A stretch of 64,000 nt of DNA, from contig JBFXJJ010000014.1 in the NCBI GenBank assembly GCA_050175015.1, positions 1 through 64,000 on the forward strand, given 5' to 3'. A model generated the notes under the pieces. It was not told the DNA's origin and searched no databases. It was given only the letters and a program-made list of their open reading frames with translations. This document shows, one piece after another, positions 30,657 through 53,451 of this stretch; within the stretch, counting starts at the first letter, position 1, and the number at the start of each line of letters is the position of its first letter. Source of the DNA: Alphaproteobacteria bacterium. Its GTDB lineage: Bacteria; Pseudomonadota; Alphaproteobacteria; JBFXJJ01. The translations under genes were made by a program, and so were the position numbers.

Positions 30657-30662
30657 ACATAT

Positions 30663-30737: not shown

Positions 30738-30742
30738 ATTAG

Positions 30743-30788: not shown

Positions 30789-30811
30789 GCACTGCTTTAA
30801 AGCATATTGCT

Positions 30812-32788: not shown

Positions 32789-32980
32789 TACAAGTCTCCA
32801 TAATATTAAATTAGTTTAAATAGTTTATATTAAAAGAGATATAGTTCAATTTTTATTTATATAAAGTTTGCGTGTTGTTCAATACTTATGGATATAATCT
32901 AAAGTTTGGGTTTGCATAAGTTGTTTGTTTAAAGTTATTGTATTTTAATTAACATCATAAACTAAAATTGGTCGTAATTT

Positions 32981-33721
32981 ATGAAACTATCAGAGCAGTA
33001 TTCAAAACAATATAATTGGCGCAGCTGGGATAAAATATATTGTAAACTTCCTACGCTTGCGGGGAAAAAAGTGCTTGATGTCGGCTGCGCTATTGGCGAT
33101 CAATCGCAGGATTTTTCAGATATGGGGGCGTTGGTTACAGGAATTGACGGCAATCAAGAGTTGTTAGCTGTTGCCAAATCAAGAAATATTGCCAACAGTC
33201 AATTTATCAAAGCTGATTTTGGCAATATGGATATGCTGCAAGAGGAAAAATATGACTTAATATGGTCAAGTTTTTCAATAGCGTATTTTATGGATCAATC
33301 AAAAATTATTAATTATTGGAAAAGTTTTTTAAAAGACGGCGGTTTTTTGTGTTTGATTGAGATGTCAGATTTATTGGGACACGAACCGCTTGCCAATAAA
33401 TATAAAAAGCAGGTAGAAAAATTTTATAAAGATGCGTTTGCAGAGCAGAGATATGATTTTTTAGCAGGAGAAAAACTTGAAAAATCTATGATTAGTGGAG
33501 GTTTTGAAATTATTGCTGCCGAAAACATTGCAGATAAAGAACTCTCTTTTTCTGGAGAAGCTCCAGAAGAAATAAGGAAAGCGTGGTTTCAACGTTTTGA
33601 AAGACCAAAAATGAAAGAAGATTTACCTCTTGGATTAGCCGAGGCGTTTCTTGAAACAATTAATAGAAAAGACCATAAGTCTAATTGTGTTGTAAAATTT
33701 GTATTGGGTAAAAAGCTATAA
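32981..33721 (+). CDS. Class I SAM-dependent methyltransferase, substrate unknown
   Basis: VLDVGCAIG, TGID, YDLIW, LKDGG motifs. Confidence 0.85.
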   Translation: MKLSEQYSKQYNWRSWDKIYCKLPTLAGKKVLDVGCAIGDQSQDFSDMGALVTGIDGNQELLAVAKSRNIANSQFIKADFGNMDMLQEEKYDLIWSSFSIAYFMDQSKIINYWKSFLKDGGFLCLIEMSDLLGHEPLANKYKKQVEKFYKDAFAEQRYDFLAGEKLEKSMISGGFEIIAAENIADKELSFSGEAPEEIRKAWFQRFERPKMKEDLPLGLAEAFLETINRKDHKSNCVVKFVLGKKL

Positions 33722-33895
33722 TCAAAAGAAAATAATTGGTTTATGCCTTTTATAAAAATGGGCGATGAGAGGTATATCCTTCTTTAAGGCATTGTTTATA
33801 AAAGTTAAAGAAACTTGTAAGTTAAATTGGGGAATGATACCTTGGCATAATAAGATGTTTTCTTCCTAAAGATTTTACAAAAAGGTTTAAAAAAT

Positions 33896-35167
33896 ATGAG
33901 CAATACCAAGCTGTTTGAAGAAGCTCTTGCCTTTCATACCAAAGGGCGTAAGGGTAAAATAGAAGTTACACCAACCAAAAATCTTAAAACGCAGAAAGAT
34001 TTGTCCTTAGCGTATTCCCCAGGGGTTGCGGCACCTTGTCTTGAGATAAAACAAACTCCAGAACTAGCGTATGAATATACAGCTAAGGGCAATTTGGTTG
34101 GTGTGGTTTCCAATGGTACTGCTGTCCTCGGTTTAGGTAATATTGGTGCTTTGGCAGGCAAGCCTGTTATGGAAGGAAAATCGGTTTTATTTAAACGTTT
34201 TGCCGATGTTGATGCGATTGATATTGAGGTTGACAGCCTGAACGTTGATGAGGTTGTTAATTGTGTCAAGTTAATAGCTCCAACTTTTGGCGGGATAAAT
34301 CTTGAAGATATTAAAGCTCCTGAATGTTTTGCTATTGAGCGCAGGCTTAAAGAGATTTTAAATATTCCTGTTTTCCACGATGATCAGCACGGAACCGCTA
34401 TTGTGGCGGCTGCTGGTTTGATTAATGCTGTTGAGATAACGGGCAGAAAAATGAGTGATGTTAAAATGGTGGTTAATGGGGCAGGAGCCGCAGGAATTGC
34501 TTGTGTTGAATTGTTTAAGTTTTTAGGTGTTAAAAACCTGATTCTTTGTGATACTAAAGGTGTAATCAGTAAAAAACGCACAGAGAATATGAATTCTTTT
34601 AAAGAGGCACACGCCTTTGATACCGATAAAACCAGTTTGGAAGAAGTGATTGCAGGAGCCGATGTTTTTGTTGGATTATCAGCAAAAGGGGCGCTTTCTG
34701 CTGATATGGTTAAGAGTATGGCTTCCAATCCTATTATTTTTGCGATGGCAAATCCTGATCCTGAAGTAACGCCAGAAGAAGTGTCCGCAATTAGAGATGA
34801 TGCTATCGTGGCAACGGGACGTTCAGATTATCCTAATCAGATTAATAATGTTCTTGGCTTCCCTTATATTTTTAGAGGAGCTTTGGACGTTAGGGCTAAA
34901 GCTATTAATGAGGAAATGAAGCTTGCCGCAGCTTATGCTTTGGCAAAACTGGCAAAAGAAGAAGTGCCGCAAGAAGTAAAGGAAATATATGCGGGCAAAA
35001 ATTTAAGTTTTGGCAGGGAATATATTATTCCAACTCCGTTTGACCCTAGATTGATTGTTGAAGTTCCTTTGGCGGTTGCAAAGGCGGCTATCTCTTCAGG
35101 GGTTGCTCTAGCACCATTTAAAGACGAGGTCGAGTATATATCAAAGCTTTCACAAAGATTATCTTAA
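33896..35167 (+). CDS. NAD(P)-dependent malic enzyme (MaeB N-terminal type, no PTA domain)
   Basis: LSLAYSPGVA, PVMEGK, NLEDI, HDDQHGT, GAGAAG, ATGRSD.PNQ; 423 aa. Confidence 0.93.
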   Translation: MSNTKLFEEALAFHTKGRKGKIEVTPTKNLKTQKDLSLAYSPGVAAPCLEIKQTPELAYEYTAKGNLVGVVSNGTAVLGLGNIGALAGKPVMEGKSVLFKRFADVDAIDIEVDSLNVDEVVNCVKLIAPTFGGINLEDIKAPECFAIERRLKEILNIPVFHDDQHGTAIVAAAGLINAVEITGRKMSDVKMVVNGAGAAGIACVELFKFLGVKNLILCDTKGVISKKRTENMNSFKEAHAFDTDKTSLEEVIAGADVFVGLSAKGALSADMVKSMASNPIIFAMANPDPEVTPEEVSAIRDDAIVATGRSDYPNQINNVLGFPYIFRGALDVRAKAINEEMKLAAAYALAKLAKEEVPQEVKEIYAGKNLSFGREYIIPTPFDPRLIVEVPLAVAKAAISSGVALAPFKDEVEYISKLSQRLS

Positions 35168-38827: not shown

Positions 38828-41800
38828 TCAATTATTAATGTTTGGTTTGGAAAGCCATTCTGATACTTTTTCTAAGTAGAGATATATTACAGGTGTTATG
38901 AAAAGAGTTAAAGCTTGTGATGTTAAAAGTCCGCCAACAACAGCAAGTCCAAGAGGTTGTCTTAGTTCCGAGCCCGCTCCTATTCCAAGAGCAATGGGAA
39001 GTGTTCCAAAAAGAGCAGCCATAGATGTCATCATAATTGGTCTAAAGCGCATTAAACAGGCTTGATAAATAGCTTGTTCTGCTGGAGTTCCATTGTTTTT
39101 TTCAATTATAGCAAAGTCTATCATTAAAATGGCATTTTTCTTAACAATACCAATGAGCATAATAATACCAATCATTGCGATGACACTAAGTTCGACTTTA
39201 AACAGCATAAGGGTTAAAATTGCTCCTAAACCTGCGGAAGGCAGTCCTGATAAAATTGTGATAGGGTGAATAAAGCTTTCATAAAGCATACCTAAGATTA
39301 TGTATATTACGAGTACAGATAGTAGAAGTAAAAACACCTGACCTGATGCAGAATCCTGAAAAGCTTGAGCCGTCCCTTGGAAACTTGTAGATATTGTTGA
39401 CGGAAGTCCGGTTTCTCTTTCTATTTGTTCGATGCGAGATACCGCATCGCCTAAGGCAAATCCTTGTGTTAGGTTAAATGATATTGTAACAGACGGAAGT
39501 TGTCCTTGATGGTTAACAGACAAAGGGCTAGTTGATTGTGTCAATGTTACAATTGTATCGAGAGGGATAAGGTCTCCTTGGTTACCTCTAACATAAAGTT
39601 TTTTTATGTCGGACGGCGATTTTTGGCTATCGGCGCTGCTTTCTAGAATTACCTTATAATCGTCATCGGGTTTATATATGGTTGCAACTTCAGCATTGCC
39701 AAAGGCGGCGTATAATGTTTGCCTAATGTCATAATCACTGACCCCTAAGCTCGCAGCTTTATCTCTGTTTATATTAACCAAAGTGGCTAAACTCTTTAGT
39801 TGGAGATCTGTATTAACATCTTGAAAGATTGGTTCCGATTTTAGTGTCTGCTCAACTTTCTCAGACCAATTATAAAGCTCATCTAAATCACTTCCCTGCA
39901 GGGTATATTGGTAAAGGCTTTTAGCGGGGCGCCCTCCAATTTGAATGTTTTGGATTGGCTGCATAAAAATGTTAAAGCCCTCAATAGCACTTAAATCCTT
40001 TTTTAGTTTTTTCATAACTTCATTAGCGTGAGGTCTTGTATTGTAAGGAGTTAATCCAATAAGAATTCGTCCTGAATTCATAGATCCTCGGCTTCCGCCT
40101 AAAAAGTAAAATACTTTTTCAACATTTGGCTCTTTTGCAATAATTTCGGCGGCCTGCCTTTGTTTATCAAGCATAGAGGTATAAGAAATATCTTGGGCAC
40201 CTTCTGTTGAAGCAATAATCATTCCTGTATCTTCAATGGGGAAAAAACCTTTAGGTACGATAGCAAAAACATAGATTGTGCCAAACAATGTTAAGAAGGT
40301 CATAAATAAAGTGGTTTTCTTATATTTTAAAACTATAAGCAGAGATTTGTTATAGGCGTTTAATAGAAGTTCAAAACCATATTCCAGTAATTGTCCCAAA
40401 AAGTTTTCTTTTTCATTTTCTTTGTGAGGTTTAAGCCACAGACTACACAGCATAGGTGTGAGAGTTAAAGATATGAAGCCTGAAACTAAGATAGCAAAAC
40501 TTATAGTTATCGCAAACTCTAAAAAGAGCCTTCCCACAATTCCTCCCATAAAAATGACAGGAATAAAAACGGCAACCAAAGAAAGAGTTATTGAGATAAT
40601 AGTGAACCCAATTTCTTTAGCGCCCTTTAGTGCAGCTTCAAATGGTTTATCTCCTTGCTCAATGTATCTTACAATGTTTTCTAGCATAACAATAGCATCA
40701 TCAACGACAAAGCCAACACATAAGGTTAAAGCTAGAAGTGATATGTTGTTAATACTGAAACCAAAAGCCGCCATACCTCCATAGGTTGCCACGATTGATA
40801 ATGGAACAACAATAGCAGGGATAATTGTTGCTGAAAATTTTCTTAAAAAAAGAAAGATTACAGCTATAACTAAGACTATTGTTAATTTTAAAGTGAATTG
40901 AACATCGTGAACCGCTTCCTTAACTGCTATTGAGCGGTCAAAAATAGGGGTTAACTCTACTGACGGAGGAAGTTGGGCTTTAAGCCTAGGAAGCATAGCT
41001 CTTACGCTTTCTACAACTTCAATAGTATTAGCATCAGGCTGGCGCTGAATTGCAATGTTTACAGCTTTTTTGCCATTGGTTACGGCTGTTGTGTGGAGGT
41101 CTTCTACAGAATCATAGACATTAGCAACATCTTGCAGTCTTATGGGTGCTCCATTACGCCAAGCTATAATTAGTGATTTAAAATCGTCTGCTTTTTCGGC
41201 TGTATTTGAAATATTTATATTAAATAATTGTTTATCGCCGTTAATAAAACCTGTAGGCGAGTTCGATGAATTTTCACTTATGGCTTCTTTTAATTCGGAA
41301 AAACTTAAGTTATGAGCAGCTAAAGCTTGTGGATTTGCCTGAATTCTTACCGCATATTTTTGAGAACCATATATTATTACCTGAGCAACCCCTGAAAGCG
41401 TTGATATTCTGTTGCTGATTAAAGTATTGGCATATTCATTAACTTTAGATATGGGGACAGTTTCAGATGACACTGATATTATAATAATTGCTTGGTCTGC
41501 GGGATTTACCTTTGAAAAAGATGGAGGGTTGGTCATTTCTGGCGGTAAATTTTTCAGTGTTGCTGAAATAGCAGTTTGAACATCGAGAGCAGCGCCATCA
41601 ATATCTCGGCTGAGGTCAAACTGTAAAGTGATTTGCGTTGATCCCAAGAAACTGCTTGATGTCATAGACGTTATGCCTGCAATTCTGGAAAATTGGCGCT
41701 CTAAAGGCTGGGCTACAGAAGAAGCCATTGTTTCAGGGCTTGCTCCTGCTAACGTTGCTGATACTTGAATTGTTGGGAAGTCAACTTGAGGCAGGGCGCT

Positions 41801-41902
41801 TATGGCAAGATTTCGATAGCCCGCAATACCTCCGACAATAATAGCTATAGTTAAAAGAGTTGTAAAAACAGGTCTTCTAATGCAGAATTCTGATATATTC
41901 AT
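38828..41902 (-). CDS. RND efflux permease (MdtB/MdtC-like)
   Basis: RRPVFT, LPQVDFPTI, GFVVDDAIV, GIVKKNAI, RFRPIMMT; 1024 aa. Confidence 0.95.
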   Translation of the reverse strand: MNISEFCIRRPVFTTLLTIAIIVGGIAGYRNLAISALPQVDFPTIQVSATLAGASPETMASSVAQPLERQFSRIAGITSMTSSSFLGSTQITLQFDLSRDIDGAALDVQTAISATLKNLPPEMTNPPSFSKVNPADQAIIIISVSSETVPISKVNEYANTLISNRISTLSGVAQVIIYGSQKYAVRIQANPQALAAHNLSFSELKEAISENSSNSPTGFINGDKQLFNINISNTAEKADDFKSLIIAWRNGAPIRLQDVANVYDSVEDLHTTAVTNGKKAVNIAIQRQPDANTIEVVESVRAMLPRLKAQLPPSVELTPIFDRSIAVKEAVHDVQFTLKLTIVLVIAVIFLFLRKFSATIIPAIVVPLSIVATYGGMAAFGFSINNISLLALTLCVGFVVDDAIVMLENIVRYIEQGDKPFEAALKGAKEIGFTIISITLSLVAVFIPVIFMGGIVGRLFLEFAITISFAILVSGFISLTLTPMLCSLWLKPHKENEKENFLGQLLEYGFELLLNAYNKSLLIVLKYKKTTLFMTFLTLFGTIYVFAIVPKGFFPIEDTGMIIASTEGAQDISYTSMLDKQRQAAEIIAKEPNVEKVFYFLGGSRGSMNSGRILIGLTPYNTRPHANEVMKKLKKDLSAIEGFNIFMQPIQNIQIGGRPAKSLYQYTLQGSDLDELYNWSEKVEQTLKSEPIFQDVNTDLQLKSLATLVNINRDKAASLGVSDYDIRQTLYAAFGNAEVATIYKPDDDYKVILESSADSQKSPSDIKKLYVRGNQGDLIPLDTIVTLTQSTSPLSVNHQGQLPSVTISFNLTQGFALGDAVSRIEQIERETGLPSTISTSFQGTAQAFQDSASGQVFLLLLSVLVIYIILGMLYESFIHPITILSGLPSAGLGAILTLMLFKVELSVIAMIGIIMLIGIVKKNAILMIDFAIIEKNNGTPAEQAIYQACLMRFRPIMMTSMAALFGTLPIALGIGAGSELRQPLGLAVVGGLLTSQALTLFITPVIYLYLEKVSEWLSKPNINN

Positions 41903-41904
41903 TC

Positions 41905-43038
41905 TTATTTCTTTGCTTCAATTTGGGTACCATCTAAGACTTTTAATAAACCGTCCATAATTACGAAATCAAGTTCAGAAAGACCATCTTTAATGATGGC
42001 ATTTTCATTAATAATTTGATCCAAAGTTACGTTTTTCTTAACTGCTTTGTTGTTGGCGAGGTCGGCAACAAAAACAAAACGATTTTGCTCATCGCCTTGC
42101 AGTGCAGAGGCCGGTATGACGATAGCTGATTTAACACGTCCTAATTGAATAGTTGTATTAACAAACATTCCTGGCCATAGTTTTTCTTCGGCATTATTGA
42201 ATTTTGCTCGAGCAACAAAAGTTCCATTGCTGGTGTCAATATTATTATCAATATAGTCAAGTGTACCAATCATTGCATGAGAGCATTCTGGCAGATTTAC
42301 TGATATTTGAACATCATTGTCGTTGATAGAGTTTTTAACTAAATGATAGTAGCGCTGAGGTACAGAAAATTGAACTAGAATGGGATCAACTTGGTTTATT
42401 GTTACTAAAGGAGTGTCCGCATTTGCTTTAACATTATTTCCTGTCGTTTGATTAATGGTTCCTGCGCGTCCTGTTATTGGGGAACGGATTTCCATATAAT
42501 CAAGCGTAACATTGCTGTTTTCAATAGCAGCTTTGTCCCCAGCGATTAATGCTGTTTGAGCATCTAATGATGCTTTGTCTTGTTCCAGTTTTGCAACAGT
42601 TGTATAGCCCTTGTTGGTTAATTCTAAAGACCTTTCATATTGGGACTTTATGCTTATAAGCTGAGCTTCATCTTTTTGGAGGTTAGCCTTTTGTTGTTCA
42701 AGTGTGGCTTTTAATGCTCTGTTATCAAGGGTGAAAAGTTTTGCCCCAGCTTTTACTAAATCACCGTCATGAAAGTGTACAGCAGCTATTTGAGAATCTA
42801 AACGTGATTTAATAGCAATCGTTTTATATGCAAAAACTGTTCCTGCCAACTGGATTTCAATGGGAATGTCTTTGCGTTCAACTGGTGCGATGCTTACTAT
42901 TACAGACGGTTTTGATGAAGCATCTTTTAAGCCTGAGGAAATTTCATTTGACTGGGCTGATGGCTGGTTAAAAAACCATAAATAACTTATTGTAATAGTT
43001 ATGAGCAGAATAAAAAAAGCCCATTTTTTCATAGACAT
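41905..43038 (-). CDS. RND membrane fusion protein (MdtA-like)
   Basis: N-terminal TM, lipoyl/hairpin region, IRSPITG, LWPGMFV. Confidence 0.93.
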   Translation of the reverse strand: MSMKKWAFFILLITITISYLWFFNQPSAQSNEISSGLKDASSKPSVIVSIAPVERKDIPIEIQLAGTVFAYKTIAIKSRLDSQIAAVHFHDGDLVKAGAKLFTLDNRALKATLEQQKANLQKDEAQLISIKSQYERSLELTNKGYTTVAKLEQDKASLDAQTALIAGDKAAIENSNVTLDYMEIRSPITGRAGTINQTTGNNVKANADTPLVTINQVDPILVQFSVPQRYYHLVKNSINDNDVQISVNLPECSHAMIGTLDYIDNNIDTSNGTFVARAKFNNAEEKLWPGMFVNTTIQLGRVKSAIVIPASALQGDEQNRFVFVADLANNKAVKKNVTLDQIINENAIIKDGLSELDFVIMDGLLKVLDGTQIEAKK

Positions 43039-43238
43039 TACCCCCAGCTATGTAGTTTTTATACTTTTTCGTTATTATGTAACGCTAAAATTGCTAGCTG
43101 TACAAGCTAAAAGTTAGAGTTTTCTTCATAAATATTCTTAAATAATTTATGTATTTAATTTTTTTATCTGATATCATACAACTAAAGGATATTTTTTGGT
43201 GTATGTTGTGAATATTAATTTTAAAAAGTATTGAAAAT

Positions 43239-43550
43239 ATGGATAATAGACCTAAGTATTTTAATACAAAAAATATATTATTGCTTTTGGTAGCAGCTAT
43301 GTTAGCGGGCTTTTTAGTTCCTGAGGATTTAGTTTTTAAGTTTTATGTTCCATCTCTTGTTTTTATAGGCTTAGGACTGGTGCTTGATATAGGAACTGGT
43401 CATTTTTGGGATAAAGAGCTTTCTGAAAACAAAAAAGATAAGGATAATGAAAAAAAAGGTGAAGATGCTAAGCTTCCATCACTAAAAAGAGCGCTTACGC
43501 TGCTTTTGATTGCTTTGTTATGTTTTGGCGGCTGTTTTTCGTTTTTATGA
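43239..43550 (+). CDS. Small membrane peptide 1 with C-terminal KLPS-x17-C motif (candidate precursor)
   Basis: 103 aa; hydrophobic N-part, charged linker, then KLPSLKRALTLLLIALLCFGGCFSFL; motif shared with the next two ORFs. Confidence 0.75.
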   Translation: MDNRPKYFNTKNILLLLVAAMLAGFLVPEDLVFKFYVPSLVFIGLGLVLDIGTGHFWDKELSENKKDKDNEKKGEDAKLPSLKRALTLLLIALLCFGGCFSFL

Positions 43551-43580
43551 TTTATAATATTAGATGTTTTTTGGTGTTTT

Positions 43581-43790
43581 ATGTATACGTATACTAAATC
43601 TTTAATTTTTAGCCTTATCGTTCCTTCTTATTGTATCTTGTTTGCGATTATCGGCTTTATATATGTCGAGATTGCTCGTCTGATAGCTAAAAAAGATGCT
43701 GATCCAAAGAAGCTTCCAAGCTTTCGCTCTCCATTAATTCTTATCTTGATTGCGTTTTTTAGTTTTTTTGGCTGTTTGTATTTGGGTTAA
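43581..43790 (+). CDS. Small membrane peptide 2 with C-terminal KLPS-x17-C motif (candidate precursor)
   Basis: 69 aa; AKKDADPKKLPSFRSPLILILIAFFSFFGCLYLG. Confidence 0.75.
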   Translation: MYTYTKSLIFSLIVPSYCILFAIIGFIYVEIARLIAKKDADPKKLPSFRSPLILILIAFFSFFGCLYLG

Positions 43791-43810
43791 TTTTTTTATA
43801 TGGTGATTTT

Positions 43811-44032
43811 ATGACTAGTTTTTTAATATTTTGTCTTGCGGTTTCTGTTGTTTTTTCAGTTTTAGCTGTTTTAAGTTTTTCGTATGTTGTAATTGTCCGC
43901 ACCATTCGAGCTGAGGCTAAAAAAGATGGTGATTGTAAAAAACTGCCCAGTTTTCGTTTTGCTCTGGTTGCATTTTTGATCGCTCTTTTTTGTTCTGGTG
44001 GGTGCTTTAGTGTGCTTTGGTTGAGCAAATAA
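43811..44032 (+). CDS. Small membrane peptide 3 with C-terminal KLPS-x17-C motif (candidate precursor)
   Basis: 73 aa; AKKDGDCKKLPSFRFALVAFLIALFCSGGCFSVLWLSK; the Cys is residue 65, as in peptide 2. Confidence 0.75.
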   Translation: MTSFLIFCLAVSVVFSVLAVLSFSYVVIVRTIRAEAKKDGDCKKLPSFRFALVAFLIALFCSGGCFSVLWLSK

Positions 44033-44045
44033 GGTTAAACCGTTG

Positions 44046-44228
44046 ATGGAAAATATGGCATATATTTTGGGTGGAAATTTTATTGTATTCCTTCTTTAGG
44101 GGTGAGTTGAGTTTTACTTTGTCTTAATTAATCGAATAACAAAAACTAAAAGATGGGTAAGAGTATTTCATATTTTATTCTTGTCGATGTTTTTTATAAT
44201 AACAACGTGGTTTTTTAAGGGTTTCTAG
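44046..44228 (+). pseudogene. Possible decayed fourth small membrane peptide
   Basis: One frame reads MENMAYILGGNFIVFLL*G*VEFYFVLINRITKTKRWVRVFHILFLSMFFIITTWFFKGF*: a hydrophobic-basic-hydrophobic layout with two internal stops; lacks KLPS and GC. Confidence 0.3.
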
Positions 44229-44314
44229 TAATTATTACTTTGAAGCATATTGATTTTTTTGCAGATACTTTCTTAGTATAATCTGTAATGTTTTTTTAAG
44301 AGGTTTGATAAATT

Positions 44315-45640
44315 TTGGTGTATAACACAACTAGTTGTTGTCCGGTTTGTTTAGAAATTTTGCCTGCGGTAAAAAAAGTTGAGGGCAATTTAGTATATTT
44401 AGAAAGGAATTGTCCTAAACACGGTTTTTTCAAGACATTAGTCAGTAAAGATGCCGAGCGCTTTTTTGATAAGAGATTTATTTCTGCGGGAAAAGAGCGT
44501 TATGAAAATCAAACCGAAGTTGCCAAAGGTTGCCCGTATGATTGCGGACTTTGTCCTGAACATAAACAGCATTTATGTTCGGCATTGATTGAGATTACTG
44601 ACAAGTGCAATCTTTCTTGTCCCGTTTGCTATTTTGGAGAATGCGGTGGTTCGGATATTTCTCTTGCAGAGTTTAAAAAAAGGCTGGCAACAGTTATGCG
44701 AACAGAAAATGGCAAGCTTGATGTTTTACAGGTATCTGGTGGTGAACCAACGCTGCACCCGCTTTTTGAAGAAATTATAAGTGAGGCTTGCCTTGAGAAC
44801 ATTGGGCGTGTTGTTATTAACACCAATGGCATTAAACTGCTTGAAGATGACAAATTGTTTGAAGTAATAAAAAAGAATAAAGAGCGGCTGGAAATTTATT
44901 TGCAGTTTGATGGTTTTAACGAAACCGCCAACCTAAAACTTAGAGGTTTAGATTTATCTGAGGTGAAAACAAAAGTGATTGCAAAGCTTGATAGTGAAGA
45001 TATTAGAATGAGTTTTGCGGTAACTGTTATTGAAGACAACCTTTCGGAGCTAAAAAAAATTCTAGATTTGGCTTGTAAAACTAAAAATGTAACGGGCATA
45101 ACTTTTCAAAGATTAACCAAATCAGGCAAGGGGACATCTTTGTCAGAAGAAAAGGCGCTGGTTCAAGAGGATTTGCTTGTTGCCATAAGTGATAGCGGCT
45201 ATTTAAAATATCAAGATATTGTTCCGCTTCCTTGTTCTCACGAAAACTGTACCTCAATTAGTTTTTTGTTTGTAACTAAAGACAAAATTTATTCATTAGC
45301 AGATTTCATTAATTATGAAAAACATCAAAATATAATTAAAGATAAAATAGGTTTTGAAGCTTCAATTTTGGATTATATTAAAGAAGAATTTGGCTGTGCC
45401 TGCTGCTCTAGTTTTATGACCAAAGCTTTGCCCGTTGTTCAAAAATTTAGAGAATTTGCCGCAGGTAGAAAAGCTGTTAATCATAATATGAAAATTCTTA
45501 GGATACTGGTTAAAAATTTTATGGACTCTTCTACCTTTGATACCGAGAGAGCTAAAAAATGCTGCATTGGTGTTGCTACTGGAGATAATAAAATTATTCC
45601 TTTTTGCGTTAATAATATTTTTAAAAACAAGAGTTGCTAA
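44315..45640 (+). CDS. Radical SAM enzyme of the Tes/GDGT-MAS (MJ0619) family
   Basis: N-terminal CPVC...CPKHG, GCPYDCGLCPEH, radical SAM CNLSCPVC, SGGEPT, NTNG, YLQFDG, PLPC, and C-terminal FMD...KCCI...PFC. Confidence 0.85.
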   Translation: MVYNTTSCCPVCLEILPAVKKVEGNLVYLERNCPKHGFFKTLVSKDAERFFDKRFISAGKERYENQTEVAKGCPYDCGLCPEHKQHLCSALIEITDKCNLSCPVCYFGECGGSDISLAEFKKRLATVMRTENGKLDVLQVSGGEPTLHPLFEEIISEACLENIGRVVINTNGIKLLEDDKLFEVIKKNKERLEIYLQFDGFNETANLKLRGLDLSEVKTKVIAKLDSEDIRMSFAVTVIEDNLSELKKILDLACKTKNVTGITFQRLTKSGKGTSLSEEKALVQEDLLVAISDSGYLKYQDIVPLPCSHENCTSISFLFVTKDKIYSLADFINYEKHQNIIKDKIGFEASILDYIKEEFGCACCSSFMTKALPVVQKFREFAAGRKAVNHNMKILRILVKNFMDSSTFDTERAKKCCIGVATGDNKIIPFCVNNIFKNKSC

Positions 45641-46336
45641 ATGATTGATGAACATTATCCTTTAAATTCGGGGATTTACAGTCTGGCTGTTTTAACGAGC
45701 TTTTTGGTTGGATTGTTTATATTAAAACAAAGCAAAGAAGAAGCTTTAAGCATTGTTAAAGTTAAATATGTTTTGCCTGTATTTTTGGTTGGAGCAATTA
45801 TTGGGGCAAAAATTCCTGTAATTCTTAGCTATGGTTGGCATAAGGAATTTTTTTTAACAGGGAAAAGTTATTATGGAGCTTTGATTGGCGCATTTATCGC
45901 AATTAATATTTATAAATATGTATATAAAATTAAAGAGCATTTCGGCGGAAGACTAGTTGTTCCGCTGGCGGTTGGTGCTGGAATTGGTAAAATAGGCTGC
46001 TTTTTTTATGGCTGTTGCAGTGGCACTGAAACGGATTTCTTTATAAAGATACAAAACGTCCATGGGCAGTATGTCCACCCTGTGCAGTTGTATGAAAGTT
46101 TTTTTGAGTTTCTTATGGCGGCGGTCTTTTATTGTTACTATAGAAAAAAGGCAAAAATGCCTCCAGAAGCGTTTTTAATGTATCTGCTTTCTTATATGAT
46201 TTTTAGGTTTTTAATAGAATTTATTAGAATTGAACCCAAAGTCTATTTAGGATTAAGTGTTTACCAGTTAATGTCGATTGTATTCGTCCCTGTTTTTATG
46301 TTTGAACTTTTTAGGAGATTGCGAAATGCCAAGTGA
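45641..46336 (+). CDS. Divergent prolipoprotein diacylglyceryl transferase (Lgt) family protein
   Basis: GKSYYGALIG, IGKIGCFFYGCCSG (cf. LGRxGNFxNGE), HPVQLYE, RFLIEFIR; about 7 TMs; starts immediately after the radical SAM stop (TAAATG). Confidence 0.85.
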   Translation: MIDEHYPLNSGIYSLAVLTSFLVGLFILKQSKEEALSIVKVKYVLPVFLVGAIIGAKIPVILSYGWHKEFFLTGKSYYGALIGAFIAINIYKYVYKIKEHFGGRLVVPLAVGAGIGKIGCFFYGCCSGTETDFFIKIQNVHGQYVHPVQLYESFFEFLMAAVFYCYYRKKAKMPPEAFLMYLLSYMIFRFLIEFIRIEPKVYLGLSVYQLMSIVFVPVFMFELFRRLRNAK

Positions 46337-47321
46337 TTTTATCAGTGAGTTGTATTCCAGAATAGAGATGAAAACTGAATTCCCGCTTTTGTTTTTATCC
46401 GCTTGGGGAATTATGGCGTTAACCGCTGCCGCTATAGCTTTTAGTGTTGCATATAAATTTATGGAATATGGTTCAAAATCAAAAGAAGTTGTTAAACATA
46501 AAAAACATATTGTCGAAACGTTTTCGATGACGGTTTTAGTTGTGGTTATTTTTAATGTTTTGGTCGCTAATTTTGGTTCATTCAAACTAGATTATATTAC
46601 CGCTTTAATGGCATTAATATGGGGCGCACTTTGGGTTTTTATTGCAACGTGGCTTCATATCTGGTCAAAAAAAGAAATTGGTTTGTTCTGGTCTAATCAA
46701 ATAGAAATTACAAAGGGGCATAAAATTGTTACAAGAGGTCCTTATGCCTTAGTTCGGCACCCAATGTATTCATCTATGATAATATGGCTTTTGGCGGTTT
46801 CTTTGATGTTTGCTAATTATATCGGGTTAGCTTTAAGCCTGATTATTTTTACACCAATAATGATATGGAGAGCAAAATCAGAAGATAAACTTTTGCAAGA
46901 TTTAGATAAAACAAGTTTTGTTACATTTTCTGAAAAAACCAATATCCTTGTTCCTCATCTCGGACGAAAACTATCTCTTATTATTAGAATTATCGGAATT
47001 GGCTTGCTAGGGTATTCGGTGGTTTTAAATCAGATGACTTTTGAACGTTTGGTCTTCTTATTTATAATGTTTATAACAATAAGCCTTACGTCTAACTTAG
47101 CTAAAGTTAGATTTTCATATTTTAATAAGTCTTTGTTTTTATTTGTTATTTATGCAGCAGCTTTGGCTGTTCCTAAATTTTATTTCTTGTATTATGTAAT
47201 TCTGGCTTTCAATATCTGGGGCTTAAAATTTAATTGCCCCTGTATGGCAGTTTATGAAAAATATAATGGCTGCCCTTGTTTTAGATGGTTAAAAACAACG
47301 TGCCGCTTAAAGAATAAATAA
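46326..47321 (+). CDS. Isoprenylcysteine carboxyl methyltransferase (ICMT)/PEMT family membrane protein with an extra C-terminal TM and Cys-rich extension
   Basis: IGLFWS, HKIVTRGPYALVRHPMYS, RAKSED.LL; start taken at ATG 46326, overlapping the Lgt-like stop; tail CPC-x9-CPC-x7-C. Confidence 0.82.
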   Translation: MPSDFISELYSRIEMKTEFPLLFLSAWGIMALTAAAIAFSVAYKFMEYGSKSKEVVKHKKHIVETFSMTVLVVVIFNVLVANFGSFKLDYITALMALIWGALWVFIATWLHIWSKKEIGLFWSNQIEITKGHKIVTRGPYALVRHPMYSSMIIWLLAVSLMFANYIGLALSLIIFTPIMIWRAKSEDKLLQDLDKTSFVTFSEKTNILVPHLGRKLSLIIRIIGIGLLGYSVVLNQMTFERLVFLFIMFITISLTSNLAKVRFSYFNKSLFLFVIYAAALAVPKFYFLYYVILAFNIWGLKFNCPCMAVYEKYNGCPCFRWLKTTCRLKNK

Positions 47322-47376
47322 AAAATATTAATCTGTAAATTTATGATTTCTCTGTGATAATAAAATAGGAATTAAG

Positions 47377-49119
47377 GTGCGTAAGTTTTTATTAAAATGG
47401 TTTTCGAAAGATAAAAAAGGGTTTGATTTAATATCATTAAATCTTAAAAATATTTTTTTGCTTATTAGTTTTTCCATTTATATCGTATTGATTTTTTTGG
47501 GTATTGTAAAATTTACCAAGTACACGTTTTTGTTAAACATACCTATTTTTATTATAGGCTATAATTTTATCTCTTTTTTGGCGTTTATTGCGAGTTTGTT
47601 TCAAAGAAATTTGTTAGAAACAGTTATGAAAGGAACTCCCAAGCAAGTAGAAAAAGCAGCAGCTAAGCTTAAGGATATTAATTTCAGGTTCGATGAAACC
47701 TGTAACTTTGCTTTTGATATGGAATGGAAAACGGTTATAGGAAATACTCCTTTAATAATTGCGACAGCTGTTAATGATAACCTAGAAGTTATAAAAACGC
47801 TGATTAGACTTGGAGCGGATATAAATGCTAAAAATAACTGTAACGAAAATCTTTTACACCCTGCCGCAGCAAATAAAAACCCCGAAGTATTAAAAATGGT
47901 CCTAACTATGGGGTTTGATGTTAACGAGACTAATTCATATGGTTGTCCGCCATTATTTCTTGCGTCAGGCAATGTTGCTAATTTGAAAATATTGCTAGAT
48001 AAAGGCGCTAATATTAATGTCAAAGACAAAAATGGGCTTGGCGTATTACATTTCGCCGCAGATAGAATAAATCCTGACGTAAGTACATTTAATTTGTTAT
48101 TTAATAAGGGCAGTTTGCGAGGTTGTTTAGAAAGTGTAAAACTGCTTATAGCTAAAGGGGCATATGTTAATGTCAAAGACAAAGATGGATTAACACCTTT
48201 AATGATTGCGGCAAGTAATAACAATAAAGAAATTGTTAAGGCTCTTATCGATGCTGGGGCTGATATTTCTGCAACAGATAATAAAGGGCGTAATGCTCTT
48301 TTTATTGCTCAGCAAGATAACAGTCGCAATGTTATAAAAATTTTAGTTAAAGCAGGTCTTAAATCTGATGCTAAAGATATAGAAGGCAAAACCGTAGAAG
48401 AATATGTTTATCCAAAAGAAGAAACAGGCAAGATTTATCGCAGTTTTGTAATATTGGGCGTTGGTTATATAACCTTGCTCCAATTAATTCTTTTTTGGCA
48501 AAAAAATCCCAATGCAATAGCGACAATTCCAATGACTCTTGCATTGATTGTGATAGGTAAAACGTTTTTTAAGGACAGACCTGCCAAGAGAGAGAAGAAG
48601 TTTTGGTCAACAGAACACCATTTAATAAGAAATAATATCCATCTTTATTGTATATTAGTTGCTATTATTGCATACGGTATTCTTAATTTTTATTATGTTG
48701 GTTCCTATAGCTGTATTAATATAACAGAAATTTTTCAAAAAATATGGCTTTTCAGCTATGATAAACAGCATATTTTTATAAAGCATTTTTCTTTGGATAT
48801 TAACGTTTATTTTAATTTGTTATATGCTGTAATAGCCGCAGGAATACTATCTCTAAATCTGGTTAATCCGATATATGAAAAAAGTGTTTTTAATGAGGAA
48901 AGTCTTTTGCGAAAAGTTTATCTTTTAGGCTCTTCAGTTCTTGTGTTTTTTATGGGTTGGATTTTTATTTCTGTTTCAGCGCCTAAAAAAGAGGTGTTTA
49001 CATTCTCTGGTTCTTTTTTCCTTATTTTTGTTGCTTTTGTGAGCTTTTTTTCTACTCTTTTAAATATATTTGTTGCCATAAAAGATAAAGGCAAGAGAGT
49101 AGAATCTCTTGAAAGATAA
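47377..49119 (+). CDS. Ankyrin-repeat integral membrane protein
   Basis: 2 N-terminal TMs, about 6-7 ankyrin repeats (GNTPLIIA, GADINAKN, GLTPLMIAA, GRNALFIA), about 6 C-terminal TMs. Confidence 0.85.
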   Translation: MRKFLLKWFSKDKKGFDLISLNLKNIFLLISFSIYIVLIFLGIVKFTKYTFLLNIPIFIIGYNFISFLAFIASLFQRNLLETVMKGTPKQVEKAAAKLKDINFRFDETCNFAFDMEWKTVIGNTPLIIATAVNDNLEVIKTLIRLGADINAKNNCNENLLHPAAANKNPEVLKMVLTMGFDVNETNSYGCPPLFLASGNVANLKILLDKGANINVKDKNGLGVLHFAADRINPDVSTFNLLFNKGSLRGCLESVKLLIAKGAYVNVKDKDGLTPLMIAASNNNKEIVKALIDAGADISATDNKGRNALFIAQQDNSRNVIKILVKAGLKSDAKDIEGKTVEEYVYPKEETGKIYRSFVILGVGYITLLQLILFWQKNPNAIATIPMTLALIVIGKTFFKDRPAKREKKFWSTEHHLIRNNIHLYCILVAIIAYGILNFYYVGSYSCINITEIFQKIWLFSYDKQHIFIKHFSLDINVYFNLLYAVIAAGILSLNLVNPIYEKSVFNEESLLRKVYLLGSSVLVFFMGWIFISVSAPKKEVFTFSGSFFLIFVAFVSFFSTLLNIFVAIKDKGKRVESLER

Positions 49120-49204
49120 AAACTCGTGGTATTTTTATAAAAAAAGCTTTTCATAAAAAGTAAAAAAATATAAGGTCTATTTTTTATTTATGGGAGCAAT
49201 AAAA

Positions 49205-50077
49205 ATGAAGAAAATATCCCTTGCTCGTGAAAATATTTCGCCACGCAGGCTCGTTTTGACTGTGCTGGGAACGGTTGCTTGCCTTGCTTTTTTCTGGTGG
49301 TTTTTCTTTATGCGTGGTTTAGAGAAAACTGACAATGCATATCTTAAGACTAATATTACCGTGCTAAGCCCTAAGATAACGGGATATGTTGCCAAAGTTC
49401 TAGTAGAAGATAATCAAAAGGTTGCAGAAGGCGATGTCGTTGTTATTATCGACAGCCGTGATTTTGAAGCTAAAGTCTCTCAAGCCGATGCTAGTTTGCT
49501 GGTTGCAGATGCAGAATTAGAGCGAATAGAAAAAGATTTAAAAAGAACAGAGAATTTAGTTGCTAAAGGCAATGCATCAGAACAATCTCTTGATAGTATT
49601 AGAGCAGAATATAAGATTGCTTTAGGGCAAGTTCAAACGGCTAAGGCAGATTTAGAGCTAGCTAAGATTGATTTGGAAAACACAATAATAAAAGCTCCAA
49701 GGTCGGGATATATTGGTAATAAAGGCGTTAGAGAAGGGCAGCTTGTTAAGGCTGGAACCGCTCTTGCTAGTCTGGTTCCCGATAATGAAATTTGGGTAGA
49801 AGCTAATTTTAAAGAAACTCAAATTGAAGATATTAAAGAAGGGCAGAAGGTCAAAATTGAAGTTGATGCTTATCCTAGTGATGATTTTGAAGGCATAGTT
49901 GAAAGCCTTGCACCTGCTAGCGGCTCAGAGTTTAGTATTCTTCCTCCAGAAAATGCTACGGGCAATTTTACAAAAATAGTTAGAAGAATACCTGTTAGAA
50001 TTAAATTTAAGCAAGGTGAAGATGTCTCTAAATTAAAAGCTGGTATGTCTGTCTTTACAACGGTTTTTGTTAAATGA
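49205..50077 (+). CDS. emrA: EmrA/HlyD-family membrane fusion protein
   Basis: TDNAY, IKAP..G, WVEANFKETQ, ILPPENATGNFTKIVRRIPV; start taken at MKKIS (49205). Confidence 0.88.
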   Translation: MKKISLARENISPRRLVLTVLGTVACLAFFWWFFFMRGLEKTDNAYLKTNITVLSPKITGYVAKVLVEDNQKVAEGDVVVIIDSRDFEAKVSQADASLLVADAELERIEKDLKRTENLVAKGNASEQSLDSIRAEYKIALGQVQTAKADLELAKIDLENTIIKAPRSGYIGNKGVREGQLVKAGTALASLVPDNEIWVEANFKETQIEDIKEGQKVKIEVDAYPSDDFEGIVESLAPASGSEFSILPPENATGNFTKIVRRIPVRIKFKQGEDVSKLKAGMSVFTTVFVK

Positions 50078-51645
50078 GTCATCACAAGGTTTTTTCTACG
50101 GATAACTATATTCCAACTACAGCCGATTGGATTGGTTTTGTGGGAATGGTTGTTGGTATGTTTATGGCTATTCTTGATATTCAAATTGTTGCAAGTTCTA
50201 TTAATGAGATTCAAGCAGGACTTTCTGCAACTCCAGATGAGGCGACTTGGATACAAACATCATATTTAATTGCTGAAGTTATAATGATTCCATTGTCCGG
50301 CTGGCTGGCGAGAGCTTTTTCAACAAGATATCTGTTTTTGTTATCGTGCGGCGGTTTTACTATTATGAGCATAGCCTGTGCTTTTGCCTGGAATTTAGAT
50401 TCTATGATTTTGTTTAGAGCTTTGCAGGGCTTTTTTGGCGGAGCTATGATCCCGACCGTTTTTTCTGTTATTTATGGCTTTTTCCCAAGGAGACTAAAGC
50501 CTGCTCTTTCGGCAATAGTAGGTTTGGTTGTTACGTTGGCGCCCTCAACAGGGCCTGTAATAGGTGGTTGGATTACAGACAATATTTCATGGCACGCTTT
50601 GTTTACAATTAATATTATTCCTGGAATTTTGGTTTGCTTTACAACGTTGTTCTATGCCAAGTTTGATGAACCAGATTGGTCTTTAATCAAGAAAATTGAT
50701 ATTTGGGGTATAATATATGTCGGAGTTTTTCTTGGCTGTCTTCAATATGTTTTGGAAGAGGGGACAAGAAATGACTGGTTTAACAGCCGTAAAATTATAA
50801 TGTTTTCTTCAGTTTCTGCTCTAGGCGCTTTTTTGTTTCTTGTTCACGAACTTAGTTGTAAGCATCCGATTATCGACTTGTTTGCGTTTAAGGATAGAAA
50901 TTTTGCAGCAGGCTGCTTGTTTAGTTTTATTCTTGGCTGGGGGCTTTATAATGTGGTGTTTTTAACTCCAGTTTATTTATCTCAGGTCAAAGGTTTAAAC
51001 AGCCAGCAGATAGGATTTTATGTTGCTGTTATGGGTATGTTTCAGTTTTTGATGGCTCCTGTTTCTGCTGGGCTTTCAAAAAAAGCTGATTTAAGAAAAA
51101 TGTCGGCGTTTGGTATGGCTGTATTCGGCATAGGCTGCATTATGAATTCAAGGCTGTCTTATGATTCTGGTTACTGGGAATTTTTCTTTCCTCAGATGGT
51201 GAGGGGGGTAGGCGTAATGTTTGCGATAATTCCAGTTAATCTTATTGCTATGGGAACTCTTCCACCTCAAGAAGTTAAAAATGCTAGTGGTCTTTATAAT
51301 CTGACACGCAATTTAGGTGGAGCTATTGGATTGGCAGTGACAGGAACGTTTCTACAGGATTGGCCTAAGTCGCATTATGCTGTTTTAAGGGAGCATATTA
51401 CCGATACATCAGTAAAAGCTTTGTCTCTTATTGAAAATTTTTCTGACTATCTCTCGAGTTTAAATGTTGTTAAGCCTGATGATGCTATAATTAAGATACT
51501 TTATGGCATAGCACAAAGAGAGGCATCAATTATGACTTTTAATGATATTTTCTATGTTATGGGCTTAATGTTTATTCTATCTCTTATTGCTCTTCCTCTT
51601 ATAACAGTTATTAATCCAACCAAAGAAGCGGCTGAGGTTCATTAG
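50074..51645 (+). CDS. emrB: DHA2-family MFS efflux permease (EmrB-like)
   Basis: MAILDIQIV, WIQTSYL, RALQG, GP..GGW, ASGLYNLTRNLGG; ATGA overlap with emrA. Confidence 0.9.
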   Translation: MSHHKVFSTDNYIPTTADWIGFVGMVVGMFMAILDIQIVASSINEIQAGLSATPDEATWIQTSYLIAEVIMIPLSGWLARAFSTRYLFLLSCGGFTIMSIACAFAWNLDSMILFRALQGFFGGAMIPTVFSVIYGFFPRRLKPALSAIVGLVVTLAPSTGPVIGGWITDNISWHALFTINIIPGILVCFTTLFYAKFDEPDWSLIKKIDIWGIIYVGVFLGCLQYVLEEGTRNDWFNSRKIIMFSSVSALGAFLFLVHELSCKHPIIDLFAFKDRNFAAGCLFSFILGWGLYNVVFLTPVYLSQVKGLNSQQIGFYVAVMGMFQFLMAPVSAGLSKKADLRKMSAFGMAVFGIGCIMNSRLSYDSGYWEFFFPQMVRGVGVMFAIIPVNLIAMGTLPPQEVKNASGLYNLTRNLGGAIGLAVTGTFLQDWPKSHYAVLREHITDTSVKALSLIENFSDYLSSLNVVKPDDAIIKILYGIAQREASIMTFNDIFYVMGLMFILSLIALPLITVINPTKEAAEVH

Positions 51646-51708: not shown

Positions 51709-53451
51709 TTAATTATGATAGGTTTTAAATAAAGATTCAAAAAAGCTTTTAGCATTTTTGCCAATGGTTGTAGTTAGATATCCCCCTTCTTGTATAATTA
51801 ACGTTGGAAGTTTAAGCGTTGCAATTTGAGAGGCAATCTGCCTAAATTCGTCTTCTCCATTTTTCCACGCTCCTGTTGGGTCATTAGCTGCGGTGTCAAA
51901 TCCCAATGCAATAACCAGAAAAGCAGGTGAGAATTTTTTAATTTTATCTAAGGCTTTTTTTAAAGTTTGAAGATACTTTTCAGGTGTCGTATTTTCAGGC
52001 AGAGCATAATTAATATTATAACCAAAGCCTTCAGCTTCTCCCCGCTCGTCTTCAAATCCTGTAAAATAAGGATATTCAGTTGCAGGGTGTCCGTGAATGG
52101 ATATTGTTAAAACATCATTCCTTTTATAAAAAATGTCTTGAATTCCATTACCGTGATGAAAGTCTATATCAAGAACGGCTACTTTTCCATACTTTGATAG
52201 AGCATCAGCGGCTATCGCAGCATTATTGAAGTAACAAAATCCTCCAAAAAATTTGCGTTCGGCGTGATGACCAGGGGGGCGTATTAAAGCATAAGCAATA
52301 GATGATTCATTCAAAATGGCATCAGCTGCGGTAAGGGCGCAGTCAACAGCACGTTTCGCTGCTTTGAAAACATTGCTGGTAAGAGGGGTAAAGGTATCAA
52401 TGCAGAAATAGCCAGCTTTGATTGGCATATATCTAGGAATTTTTGCGGTGTTTCTAATTGGAAAAATGTAAGGATAAATTGATTTGTTTTCTTCAATTTG
52501 AGAACAGACGCTTTTTATAAAACTAAAAAAAGACTTGTCGTGAACAGCTTTGATATATTTCTCAGAAAAAGACTGCGGGGCAACCTCTTTAAAACAGTTT
52601 AGCTTTTTTATCTCTTTTAAGATAATCTCTACCCTGACAGGCGCCTCAACATAACCAACCTCATTAATATGATGTATTTCGTGTTGGTCATTTACGACCA
52701 AAATTATAGGATCTTCAACTGTGGAAGAGTTTAGTCCTTTAGTTTCAGTATTAGCTGGTATCTTTTTTATGTATTGAAAAGGGCGCATTTTTACAGGGTC
52801 ATCTTTGAAAGAGGCGACAACCATTTCTGTATATTCTTGAGGGCAATAATTGCCATATTTGTTTTCTAATATGGTTCTAACGACTTGACGGGCATATTTT
52901 TTTGACAAAGCCTCTGTTTGTATTAAATCAACCATTAAATAAGGAGGATCCGTGTCATCTTGTTTAACTGGTGTTTCATACTTTGTATTGATAATAGGTG
53001 TTATCCCTAATCTTTCATAAAATTTTAATCGGGCAATGTTTTGAAGTCTGGTTTTATCATCTGGTGAGAGCAGGGCTGTATCTGGAAGGCATTCGAAGGC
53101 AATGAGATTGCATTTTTCTTTAATGGCATTTTCCTTTACCTTCTCATAAAGAAGAGAACCTAATCCATTAGAATGTTTGCCTTTCGCTGTTGCGATATAA
53201 TCCAGATACGCAAATTTGCGTTTAGGGTCATATAATACCAAAGCAAAAGCGACAACTTTATCATTTTTTTCAGCAACAATGATGTTTGTTTTAAACTGAT
53301 ATTTAAAAGGATTAAGGAGCTTTTCTTCCAAATTTTCAATATCGGTTATTGGTATTTTAGAAAATTGGCTTTTTAAAATTATTTTTACTTGGTTTATCGT
53401 ACTGATATTGGCGCTGGTAGTTGCATCTAAAATTTTTCTAATTCGGAACAT
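51709..53451 (-). CDS. Fusion of an N-terminal GNAT-like acetyltransferase and a C-terminal HDAC/acetylpolyamine amidohydrolase domain
   Basis: YLDYIAT...SNGLGSLLY (GNAT motif A), RLKFYERLG; RPPGHHA, GGFCYFNNAA, DIDFHHGNG, GFD, EGGY. Confidence 0.88.
   Translation of the reverse strand: MFRIRKILDATTSANISTINQVKIILKSQFSKIPITDIENLEEKLLNPFKYQFKTNIIVAEKNDKVVAFALVLYDPKRKFAYLDYIATAKGKHSNGLGSLLYEKVKENAIKEKCNLIAFECLPDTALLSPDDKTRLQNIARLKFYERLGITPIINTKYETPVKQDDTDPPYLMVDLIQTEALSKKYARQVVRTILENKYGNYCPQEYTEMVVASFKDDPVKMRPFQYIKKIPANTETKGLNSSTVEDPIILVVNDQHEIHHINEVGYVEAPVRVEIILKEIKKLNCFKEVAPQSFSEKYIKAVHDKSFFSFIKSVCSQIEENKSIYPYIFPIRNTAKIPRYMPIKAGYFCIDTFTPLTSNVFKAAKRAVDCALTAADAILNESSIAYALIRPPGHHAERKFFGGFCYFNNAAIAADALSKYGKVAVLDIDFHHGNGIQDIFYKRNDVLTISIHGHPATEYPYFTGFEDERGEAEGFGYNINYALPENTTPEKYLQTLKKALDKIKKFSPAFLVIALGFDTAANDPTGAWKNGEDEFRQIASQIATLKLPTLIIQEGGYLTTTIGKNAKSFFESLFKTYHN

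Follow-up and report, generated by a model that had tools for sequence, protein, structure and literature searches.

We analyzed a 64-kb stretch of an alphaproteobacterial genome (hereafter the window) and, within it, a row of six genes in which three small open reading frames (ORFs), called here mini-proteins 1 to 3, stand upstream of a radical S-adenosylmethionine (SAM) enzyme, a paralog of the lipoprotein lipid transferase Lgt and a membrane methyltransferase. All six genes lie on one strand, with gaps of 0–282 bp or overlaps between them. The genome assembly comprises 2.5 Mb in 49 contigs and is 99.4% complete. The genes of this cassette are the following (TM, transmembrane).

43239–43550, + strand: mini-protein 1, 103 aa; a pair of hydrophobic segments at the N-terminus, a loop of acidic and basic residues, and a last TM segment with the ending ...LLCFGGC-FSFL.
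43581–43790, + strand: mini-protein 2, 69 aa; a two-TM hairpin with the loop KKDADPKKLPSFR, ending ...FFSFFGC-LYLG.
43811–44032, + strand: mini-protein 3, 73 aa; a two-TM hairpin with the loop KKDGDCKKLPSFR, ending ...LFCSGGC-FSVLWLSK.
44315–45640, + strand: radical SAM enzyme with an N-terminal Zn ribbon, 441 aa, TTG start; PF04055 and PF23545.
45641–46336, + strand: Lgt paralog without the head domain, 231 aa; PF01790 at 109.5 bits (threshold 24.9).
46278–47321, + strand: ICMT/PEMT-family methyltransferase, 347 aa from a TTG start, with an alternative ATG at 46326; PF04140 at 54.7 bits and PF04191 at 45 bits.

The ORF listing, a MAFFT alignment of the three mini-proteins and a residue-spacing script confirmed what a first-pass annotation had described from the letters of this locus: three paralogous ORFs with a gap-free C-terminal motif, a fixed lysine-to-cysteine distance, divergent N-terminal halves and variable tails. 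The C-terminal halves share the pattern K-L-P-S...L-I-A...G-C, and K78, L79, P80, S81, L86, L90, I91, A92, G98 and C99 (numbered as in mini-protein 1) are identical in all three. The distance from this Lys to the Cys is 21 residues in every case (K78/C99 in mini-protein 1 and K44/C65 in each of the other two), while the tails after the Cys have 4 (FSFL), 4 (LYLG) and 8 (FSVLWLSK) residues. The constant spacing is inheritance through tandem duplication and not the result of three separate events. Over 30 shared codons, the three genes are 53–67% identical at the nucleotide level. For mini-proteins 2 and 3, pN is 0.20 against a pS of 0.81, and dN/dS is 0.27 for mini-proteins 1 and 3 and 0.76 for 1 and 2. 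Because non-synonymous change is well below synonymous change in two of the three pairs, translation of the mini-proteins in the + strand frame is supported. An antisense ORF at 43759–44028 that overlaps mini-protein 3 is probably spurious.

A loop rich in K and R (4–7 of them) precedes the final hydrophobic stretch of each mini-protein in hydropathy and charge profiles. Because this loop stands before the last helix, the mini-proteins are predicted to keep the loop inside and the C-terminus outside, which would put the Cys on the outer side of the membrane. The last K or R lies 15–16 residues before the Cys, the spacing of an ordinary lipoprotein signal peptide. The Shine-Dalgarno-like sequences of the mini-protein genes are weak, promoter and terminator consensus sites at the locus are no commoner than in shuffled sequence, an Rfam scan of 42800–47500 gave zero matches, and the fold of the 282-nt spacer at 44030–44320 has a z of −1.29. 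A search of sequencing runs gave none of RNA that contains the locus and one of DNA, which may come from the source sample.

Searches for homologues of the mini-proteins led back to the locus itself. A word-indexed search of 5.8 billion proteins gave two hits among 240 candidates, and an exhaustive hidden Markov model search of 1.84 billion representatives gave two hits; in both cases these were the window's own mini-proteins 1 and 3. The first-pass annotation had looked to such a model to trace the motif in this genome and its relatives, and only the window's own proteins were returned; the genome holds zero extra copies. Its family and order are represented in the collection by this genome alone. 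Mini-protein 2 is absent from both large protein collections although both of its paralogs are present, and probably no gene was ever annotated for it. Gene callers often pass over ORFs this short, and protein databases can therefore say little about them. The annotation had also allowed that the ORFs might belong to a known unrelated family, and Pfam and NCBIfam gave nothing above cut-off for the three window peptides or for eight mini-proteins of other loci. A search of the ESM Atlas with mini-protein 3 returned generic helical hairpins only, with scores of at most 0.88. Homology of the window peptides to eight hairpins from Bacteroidota was considered and is not shown by hhalign (probability 16%, E = 0.0016 for one comparison).

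The Lgt gene of the window is a spare copy, since a canonical Lgt (248 bits) is encoded elsewhere, on another contig; the single LspA of the genome also lies on another contig. The window paralog scores 67.2 bits against the TIGR00544 equivalog model, short of its cut-off of 118.9. We aligned 62 cassette Lgt paralogs, including that of the window, with the canonical Lgt of the genome and give positions in E. coli numbering. In the available portion of Mao et al. 2016 (PMC4728403), the residues H103, R143, N146, E151, G154, Y235, R239 and E243 are reported as essential, the H103A, N, Q, R and Y variants are unable to complement, and the active site of E. coli Lgt faces the periplasm. The window paralog carries the signature motif G-K-I-G-C-F-F-Y-G-C-C-S-G. 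It has Y in place of H103, K in place of R143, and C in place of both N146 and E151, while G154, Y235, R239 and E243 are retained. Across the set, the N146 position is Cys in all 62 paralogs, and His is found at the H103 position in none. At the E151 position, 45 have Cys and the others a hydrophobic residue, with Cys (45) or Thr (17) following. At position 143, 52 paralogs have R and 10, that of the window included, have K. Y235 and R239 are retained in 62 of 62, and position 243 is E or D. Because the Cys at N146, Y235 and R239 are invariant, the cassette Lgt paralogs are, on sequence grounds, a distinct conserved subfamily in which the residues that bind lipid phosphate and glycerol are kept, the proposed peptide-side catalytic His is lost and active-site cysteines are gained. 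The window protein is thus a member of the Pfam family and not an Lgt equivalog. Co-folding of the paralog with mini-protein 3 scored 0.00, below the mark, in a run without controls, and weighs neither way.

Related loci were collected around homologues of the radical SAM enzyme, 80 from genomes and 80 from metagenomes; many are short contigs. A same-strand Lgt match lies near the radical SAM gene in 61 of the 80 genome loci (median gap 264 bp) and in 57 of the 80 metagenome loci, and an ICMT match is present in 12 and 14, respectively. This combination recurs over many bacterial and some archaeal phyla. The enzymes closest to that of the window form a clade of proteins of about 439 aa at 43–62% identity, found in Elusimicrobia, Goldbacteria, Kiritimatiellae and Alphaproteobacteria; below it lies a broad family at roughly 30–36% identity. 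Among the ten close-clade genome loci, nine have an Lgt match and eight an ICMT match, the exceptions being short contigs. When 300 further genomes from this class were sampled, 8 had a homologue and 1 had a close one. The cassette is patchily distributed, as expected of a mobile cassette, and is most likely both conserved and horizontally mobile.

Small proteins with the architecture of the window peptides are concentrated beside these enzymes. We used a strict filter for ORFs ending in K/R, 17 uncharged residues of mean hydropathy ≥1.6, Cys, a tail of 3–14 residues and a stop. Around the genome loci, 26 of 1979 same-strand ORFs within 2.5 kb passed, against 0 of 5392 other ORFs in these loci, and the hits came from 23 of the 80 loci. 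A relaxed version gave 57 of 1979 against 22 of 5392 (Fisher p = 4e-17) and covered 43 of the 80 loci. In the independent metagenome set, the strict filter picked 31 of 1484 ORFs against 2 of 2567 (p = 5.5e-12), from 24 of 80 loci; at least two of those 31 are plainly false, since one of them is the Lgt paralog. Among the 56 filter-picked mini-proteins, the residue at −1 is A in 16, V in 12, T in 9, G in 5, F in 4, I in 4 and S in 2, so that G, A or S stands there in 23 of 56. The residue at −3 is F in 20, G in 11, L in 6, V in 6 and I in 3, and the tails have 3–13 residues with a mean hydropathy of +1.1. The lipobox is given as [L/V/I] at −3, [A/S/T/V/I] at −2 and [G/A/S] at −1 before the Cys in the available text of PMC12462473. 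Against it, the FGG-C, FFG-C and SGG-C of the window fit at −1 in three of three and at neither −2 (G, F, G) nor −3 (F, F, S) in any. The motif of the 56 filter-picked mini-proteins reads as lipobox-like, yet not as a lipobox.

Inspection by eye of 15 close-clade loci (L004–L013, L085 and L096–L099) showed at least one small ORF with a TM segment and Cys beside the radical SAM gene in all 15, each with a basic stretch, a hydrophobic helix and then the Cys. In three of them (L005, L007 and L011) the protein ends ...I-P-F-L-L-F-x-T-C plus 7–8 residues. The closest relative of the window (L096, with a radical SAM enzyme 60% identical) has its small ORF upstream, as in the window, with the ending ...L-M-S-G-C plus 11. 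At least 7 of the 15 loci have proteins that continue for 40–80 further residues after the Cys, with extra hydrophobic segments. Farther afield, the ending is ...F-V-G-T-C plus 7 in Pirellulales, ...N-G-A-C plus 7 in Nostocaceae, ...T-G-T-C plus 7 in a Methanosarcinales archaeon and ...V-G-G-C plus 6 in Lentimicrobium, while the Chryseobacterium mini-proteins are 77-aa hairpins ending ...G-F-I-C plus 4. The Cys, on whose conservation the first-pass annotation had staked its proposal, is the one constant feature of these analogous proteins. Its suggestion that the C-terminal basic, hydrophobic and G-C layout serves as a recognition element for the Lgt paralog likewise gains support, as the Lgt gene stands in the row and the association recurs across phyla.

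Three Elusimicrobiaceae proteins join the two partners in a single chain. In P0038 (495 aa; its cluster has 25 members), in P0050 (504 aa) and in the product of L004 4612–6114, the radical SAM enzyme continues C-terminally into a K-rich linker, a helix and a Cys, with endings of the form ...F-L-L-F-x-x-C plus 6–7 residues. Radical SAM enzymes must be cytoplasmic, and for this reason the fused helix should run from inside to outside, with its Cys in the outer half of the membrane. Because such natural fusions exist, the mini-protein appears to be tied to the enzyme with its N-terminus in the cytoplasm. The topology derived in this way matches what the charges predict for the peptides of the window, and it fits the periplasm-facing active site described for E. 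coli Lgt in the available part of PMC4728403.

The radical SAM enzyme of the window aligns with PDB 7TOL, the tetraether synthase (Tes) GDGT-MAS, at E = 1.7e-51 over residues 4–436, that is, over the whole protein. It scores 200.2 bits against the Tes/GDGT-MAS model NF045702 (cut-off 450) and 269.3 bits against NF045646 (cut-off 490), the model for the radical SAM (seleno)protein TrsS (Haft and Tolstoy 2025), and so reaches neither. TrsS is the top-scoring curated family for the window enzyme and for 10 of 10 other cassette enzymes (241–345 bits), and none of these 11 attains the TrsS or the Tes cut-off. By its sequence, the enzyme is a homologue of Tes/GDGT-MAS and a sister of TrsS, for which Tes activity is only a candidate function. 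The neighborhood of TrsS may overlap with this cassette.

The methyltransferase passes the Pfam thresholds of both ICMT and the phospholipid methyltransferase family PEMT (45 vs 25 bits for the latter). Its score against the isoprenylcysteine O-methyltransferase model NF040696 is 92.1 bits, below the cut-off of 160, and it matches 4A2N, the structure of Ma-ICMT, at E = 2.7e-12. It is the only ICMT-family gene of the genome. A C-terminal membrane extension of about 120 aa (46959–47318) carries the motif N-C-P-C-M..Y-E-K-Y.G-C-P-C, which is kept in all close-clade methyltransferases seen; no Pfam family matches the extension. We considered a fused DUF4395 domain and rejected it (BLASTP E = 2, no Pfam hit, hhalign probability 0.5%). 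Separately, 12 distant-clade loci have a short ICMT gene that is complete (191–214 aa), and in 11 of them the next gene encodes a membrane protein of about 140–190 aa that ends ...G-[FY]-C-P-A.K.Y.C....C-C (for example, L029 9009–9455 and L080 9003–9563), and the two that were scanned match DUF4395 (PF14340). Such a membrane protein looks like an optional fifth component of the cassette.

The window thus carries a Tes-like radical SAM enzyme, a same-strand Lgt with Cys at N146, and a neighboring small membrane protein, here in three copies, whose last TM segment has a conserved Cys close to its end. The version of the cassette in the window combines these three copies, placed upstream, with two-TM hairpins, the K-L-P-S loop, the K variant of the Lgt motif and the conserved Cys-rich extension of the methyltransferase.

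The cassette can be compared with known systems. Like lipoprotein maturation (lipobox, Lgt, LspA and Lnt), the cassette has an Lgt-family membrane enzyme and a candidate substrate made of a basic region, a hydrophobic helix, a small residue and a Cys, with a signal-peptide-like distance from the basic residues to the Cys. The Cys is also predicted on the side of the Lgt active site (available part of PMC4728403). Unlike that pathway, the element is C-terminal, occupying the last 26–30 residues with 4–8 residues following the Cys, and the window peptides lack the N-terminal signal and mature domain of a prolipoprotein. In addition, this second Lgt has other residues in place of H103, N146 and E151, and its signature contains an invariant Cys; the cassette has no dedicated LspA or Lnt and is always coupled to a radical SAM enzyme. 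Tes/GDGT-MAS couples lipid tail ends through radical chemistry, and the window enzyme resembles it (7TOL/7TOM) over its full length, including the Zn ribbon, the CX3CX2C motif and further Cys motifs. It differs in being shorter (441 vs 526 aa), below the Tes cut-off and bacterial, and in having an Lgt paralog and Cys mini-proteins as partners, which go unmentioned in the available portion of the Tes paper (PMC8941075). Finally, as in CaaX processing, only a few residues separate the Cys from the C-terminus, and the operon includes an ICMT-family gene. In contrast to CaaX proteins, the tail has 4–8 residues and not 3, the lipid-transfer enzyme is Lgt-like, the Cys belongs to a TM helix and lies across the membrane from SAM, and no Rce1-like protease was found in the genome. 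In full-text searches, we found no paper that joins an Lgt-type enzyme with a Tes-type enzyme or ICMT; the TrsS paper and supplementary files in general were outside these searches, and a prior description is possible.

We consider it very probable that the three ORFs are client or partner proteins of the cassette. They are most likely real small inner-membrane proteins and dedicated partners of the enzymes, acting as acceptor substrates. In the mechanism that we favor, the last helix would insert with its N-terminus in and its C-terminus out, as the charges and natural fusions suggest, leaving the Cys in the outer half of the membrane. The Lgt paralog would recognize the element formed by loop, helix and G-C and join a glycerolipid moiety to the Cys thiol. 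From the cytoplasmic side, the radical SAM enzyme would then remodel the hydrocarbon tails of the tethered lipid, possibly by carbon-carbon coupling of tail ends in analogy to Tes/GDGT-MAS, and the methyltransferase might methylate a lipid or carboxyl group at the cytoplasmic face. Proteolytic release of a lipopeptide would not be needed, and the short, variable and hydrophobic tail would simply complete the helix. The chances of this full sequence, from an S-linked glycerolipid through Tes-like remodeling and methylation to a peptide that is not released, seem to us evenly balanced. It is unlikely, in our estimate, that the tail ends of the Cys-bound glycerolipid are welded, whether to each other, giving a macrocyclic anchor, or to a lipid in the other leaflet, which would stitch the protein to a membrane-spanning lipid.

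Several observations weigh against the tethered-lipid mechanism. The window mini-proteins have no detectable sequence homologue beyond their own genome and resemble the mini-proteins of other loci in architecture only, as the hhalign comparison with the Bacteroidota hairpins indicates. The filter for this architecture was written after examples had been seen, and the window peptides themselves fail its strict form by having K/R within 17 residues of the Cys. Residues essential in E. coli (H103, N146 and E151) are missing from the Lgt paralog, and because these are replaced, it may not catalyze diacylglyceryl transfer at all. Lipidation, expression and processing of the mini-proteins are proposals that we infer from sequence. 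Two of the three enzymes depend on SAM from the cytoplasm, whereas the predicted place of the Cys is outside, so that the geometry and order proposed for the steps are tentative. Lastly, the acceptor would be stoichiometric with the enzyme in the fusions, and an anchor or subunit fits this at least as well as a substrate.

The main rival runs as follows. The cassette may make or tailor free membrane lipids, whether membrane-spanning or macrocyclic, with the mini-proteins as anchors or chaperones of a soluble radical SAM enzyme and the Cys in a structural or catalytic role or as a transient carrier. We regard this as possible, if somewhat doubtful. The full-length alignment of the radical SAM enzyme with GDGT-MAS suits it, and synthesis of brGDGTs (branched glycerol dialkyl glycerol tetraethers) is the only role proposed for bacterial Tes homologues in the available text of Zeng et al. 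2022 (PMC8941075). The same holds for the PEMT match of the methyltransferase, for the loss of H103, N146 and E151 from the Lgt paralog and for the fusions, where the helix would be the anchor. Upstream genes in L004 and L005 also resemble lipid-metabolism genes, as judged by eye without a family search. However, an anchor needs neither an invariant Cys at a fixed depth nor two to three tandem paralogs per locus, and the mini-proteins vary freely except for the Cys and its helix. To our knowledge, Lgt-family enzymes act only as transferases of lipid to protein Cys.

The first-pass annotation itself had taken the three ORFs for precursors with a conserved leader and a variable core, in the manner of ribosomally synthesized and post-translationally modified peptides (RiPPs). 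After S-lipidation, signal peptidase II would release the lipopeptides CFSFL, CLYLG and CFSVLWLSK, of 5–9 residues, or a CaaX-style cut would expose the Cys carboxyl for methylation. Such a scheme can point to the Gly at −1 in three of three window peptides, which is compatible with LspA, to tails that vary behind a conserved upstream element, to the ICMT-family gene in the row, and to efflux genes on either side of the cluster. Most of the wider evidence runs the other way. The family scans gave no peptidase gene in the row, and the sole LspA lies elsewhere. The 99.4%-complete genome has no Rce1-like protease (PF02517; M48/Ste24 types were not searched). G, A or S at −1 in only 23 of 56 mini-proteins is a poor fit to signal peptidase II, as are the tails, which have 3–13 residues in those proteins but, in at least 7 of the 15 close-clade loci, run to 40–80 residues and include additional TM segments. 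ICMT matches are confined to 12 and 14 of the 80 loci in each set, a fusion to the enzyme is hard to square with a released product, and a SAM-dependent site has to face the cytoplasm, on the other side from the predicted position of the Cys. We therefore judge peptide release by either route to be quite improbable. Both are not supported, and they keep a footing at this locus through the Gly at −1 and the presence of the ICMT-family gene. That the three ORFs are unrelated neighbors or non-genes beside the enzymes by chance, as the lack of sequence homologues outside the genome, the weak Shine-Dalgarno-like sequences and the shuffle-level promoter and terminator signals might suggest, is barely credible in view of the purifying selection between the paralogs, the enrichment of the architecture next to the cassette, seen independently in two sets of loci with 0 and 2 hits among the controls, and the same arrangement in the closest relative.

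The cassette is flanked upstream by genes for an RND pump and its adaptor (38828–43038, − strand) and downstream by an EmrA/EmrB-type pump (49190–51645, + strand). An ankyrin-repeat protein is encoded directly downstream of the cassette at 47377–49119. Two loci from Elusimicrobiaceae (L007 12005–14932 and L011 825–2291) likewise have ankyrin-repeat genes at most a few kb from the cassette, which may be a coincidence in ankyrin-rich genomes. Farther on, 51709–53451 (− strand) encodes a 580-aa protein with GNAT acetyltransferase and histone-deacetylase-family domains. The cumulative GC skew of the window has its minimum at about 28–30 kb and rises steadily afterward; this turn (about 28000–34000) may correspond to an origin or terminus of replication, or to genes changing their orientation.

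Lgt is treated as a single-purpose, essential enzyme for N-terminal lipoboxes, and the cassette points to an apparently undescribed way of attaching or remodeling a lipid on a protein. A protein stitched to a membrane-spanning lipid, if true, would be a new class of post-translational modification, and lipoproteins would be the true substrates of many "bacterial Tes homologues" that are at present taken for brGDGT synthases. If most bacterial Tes homologues work with an Lgt paralog and Cys mini-proteins, then the brGDGT assignment, as set out in the available text of PMC8941075, should be looked at again. With its four to six genes the cassette is compact, and it is present in culturable Chryseobacterium species (L045, L067, L079 and L083), which makes the hypothesis directly testable. 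A second conserved kind of Lgt that serves very small clients tagged at the C-terminus, and that has a radical SAM enzyme as its obligatory partner, would extend the known rules by which bacteria and archaea lipidate proteins.

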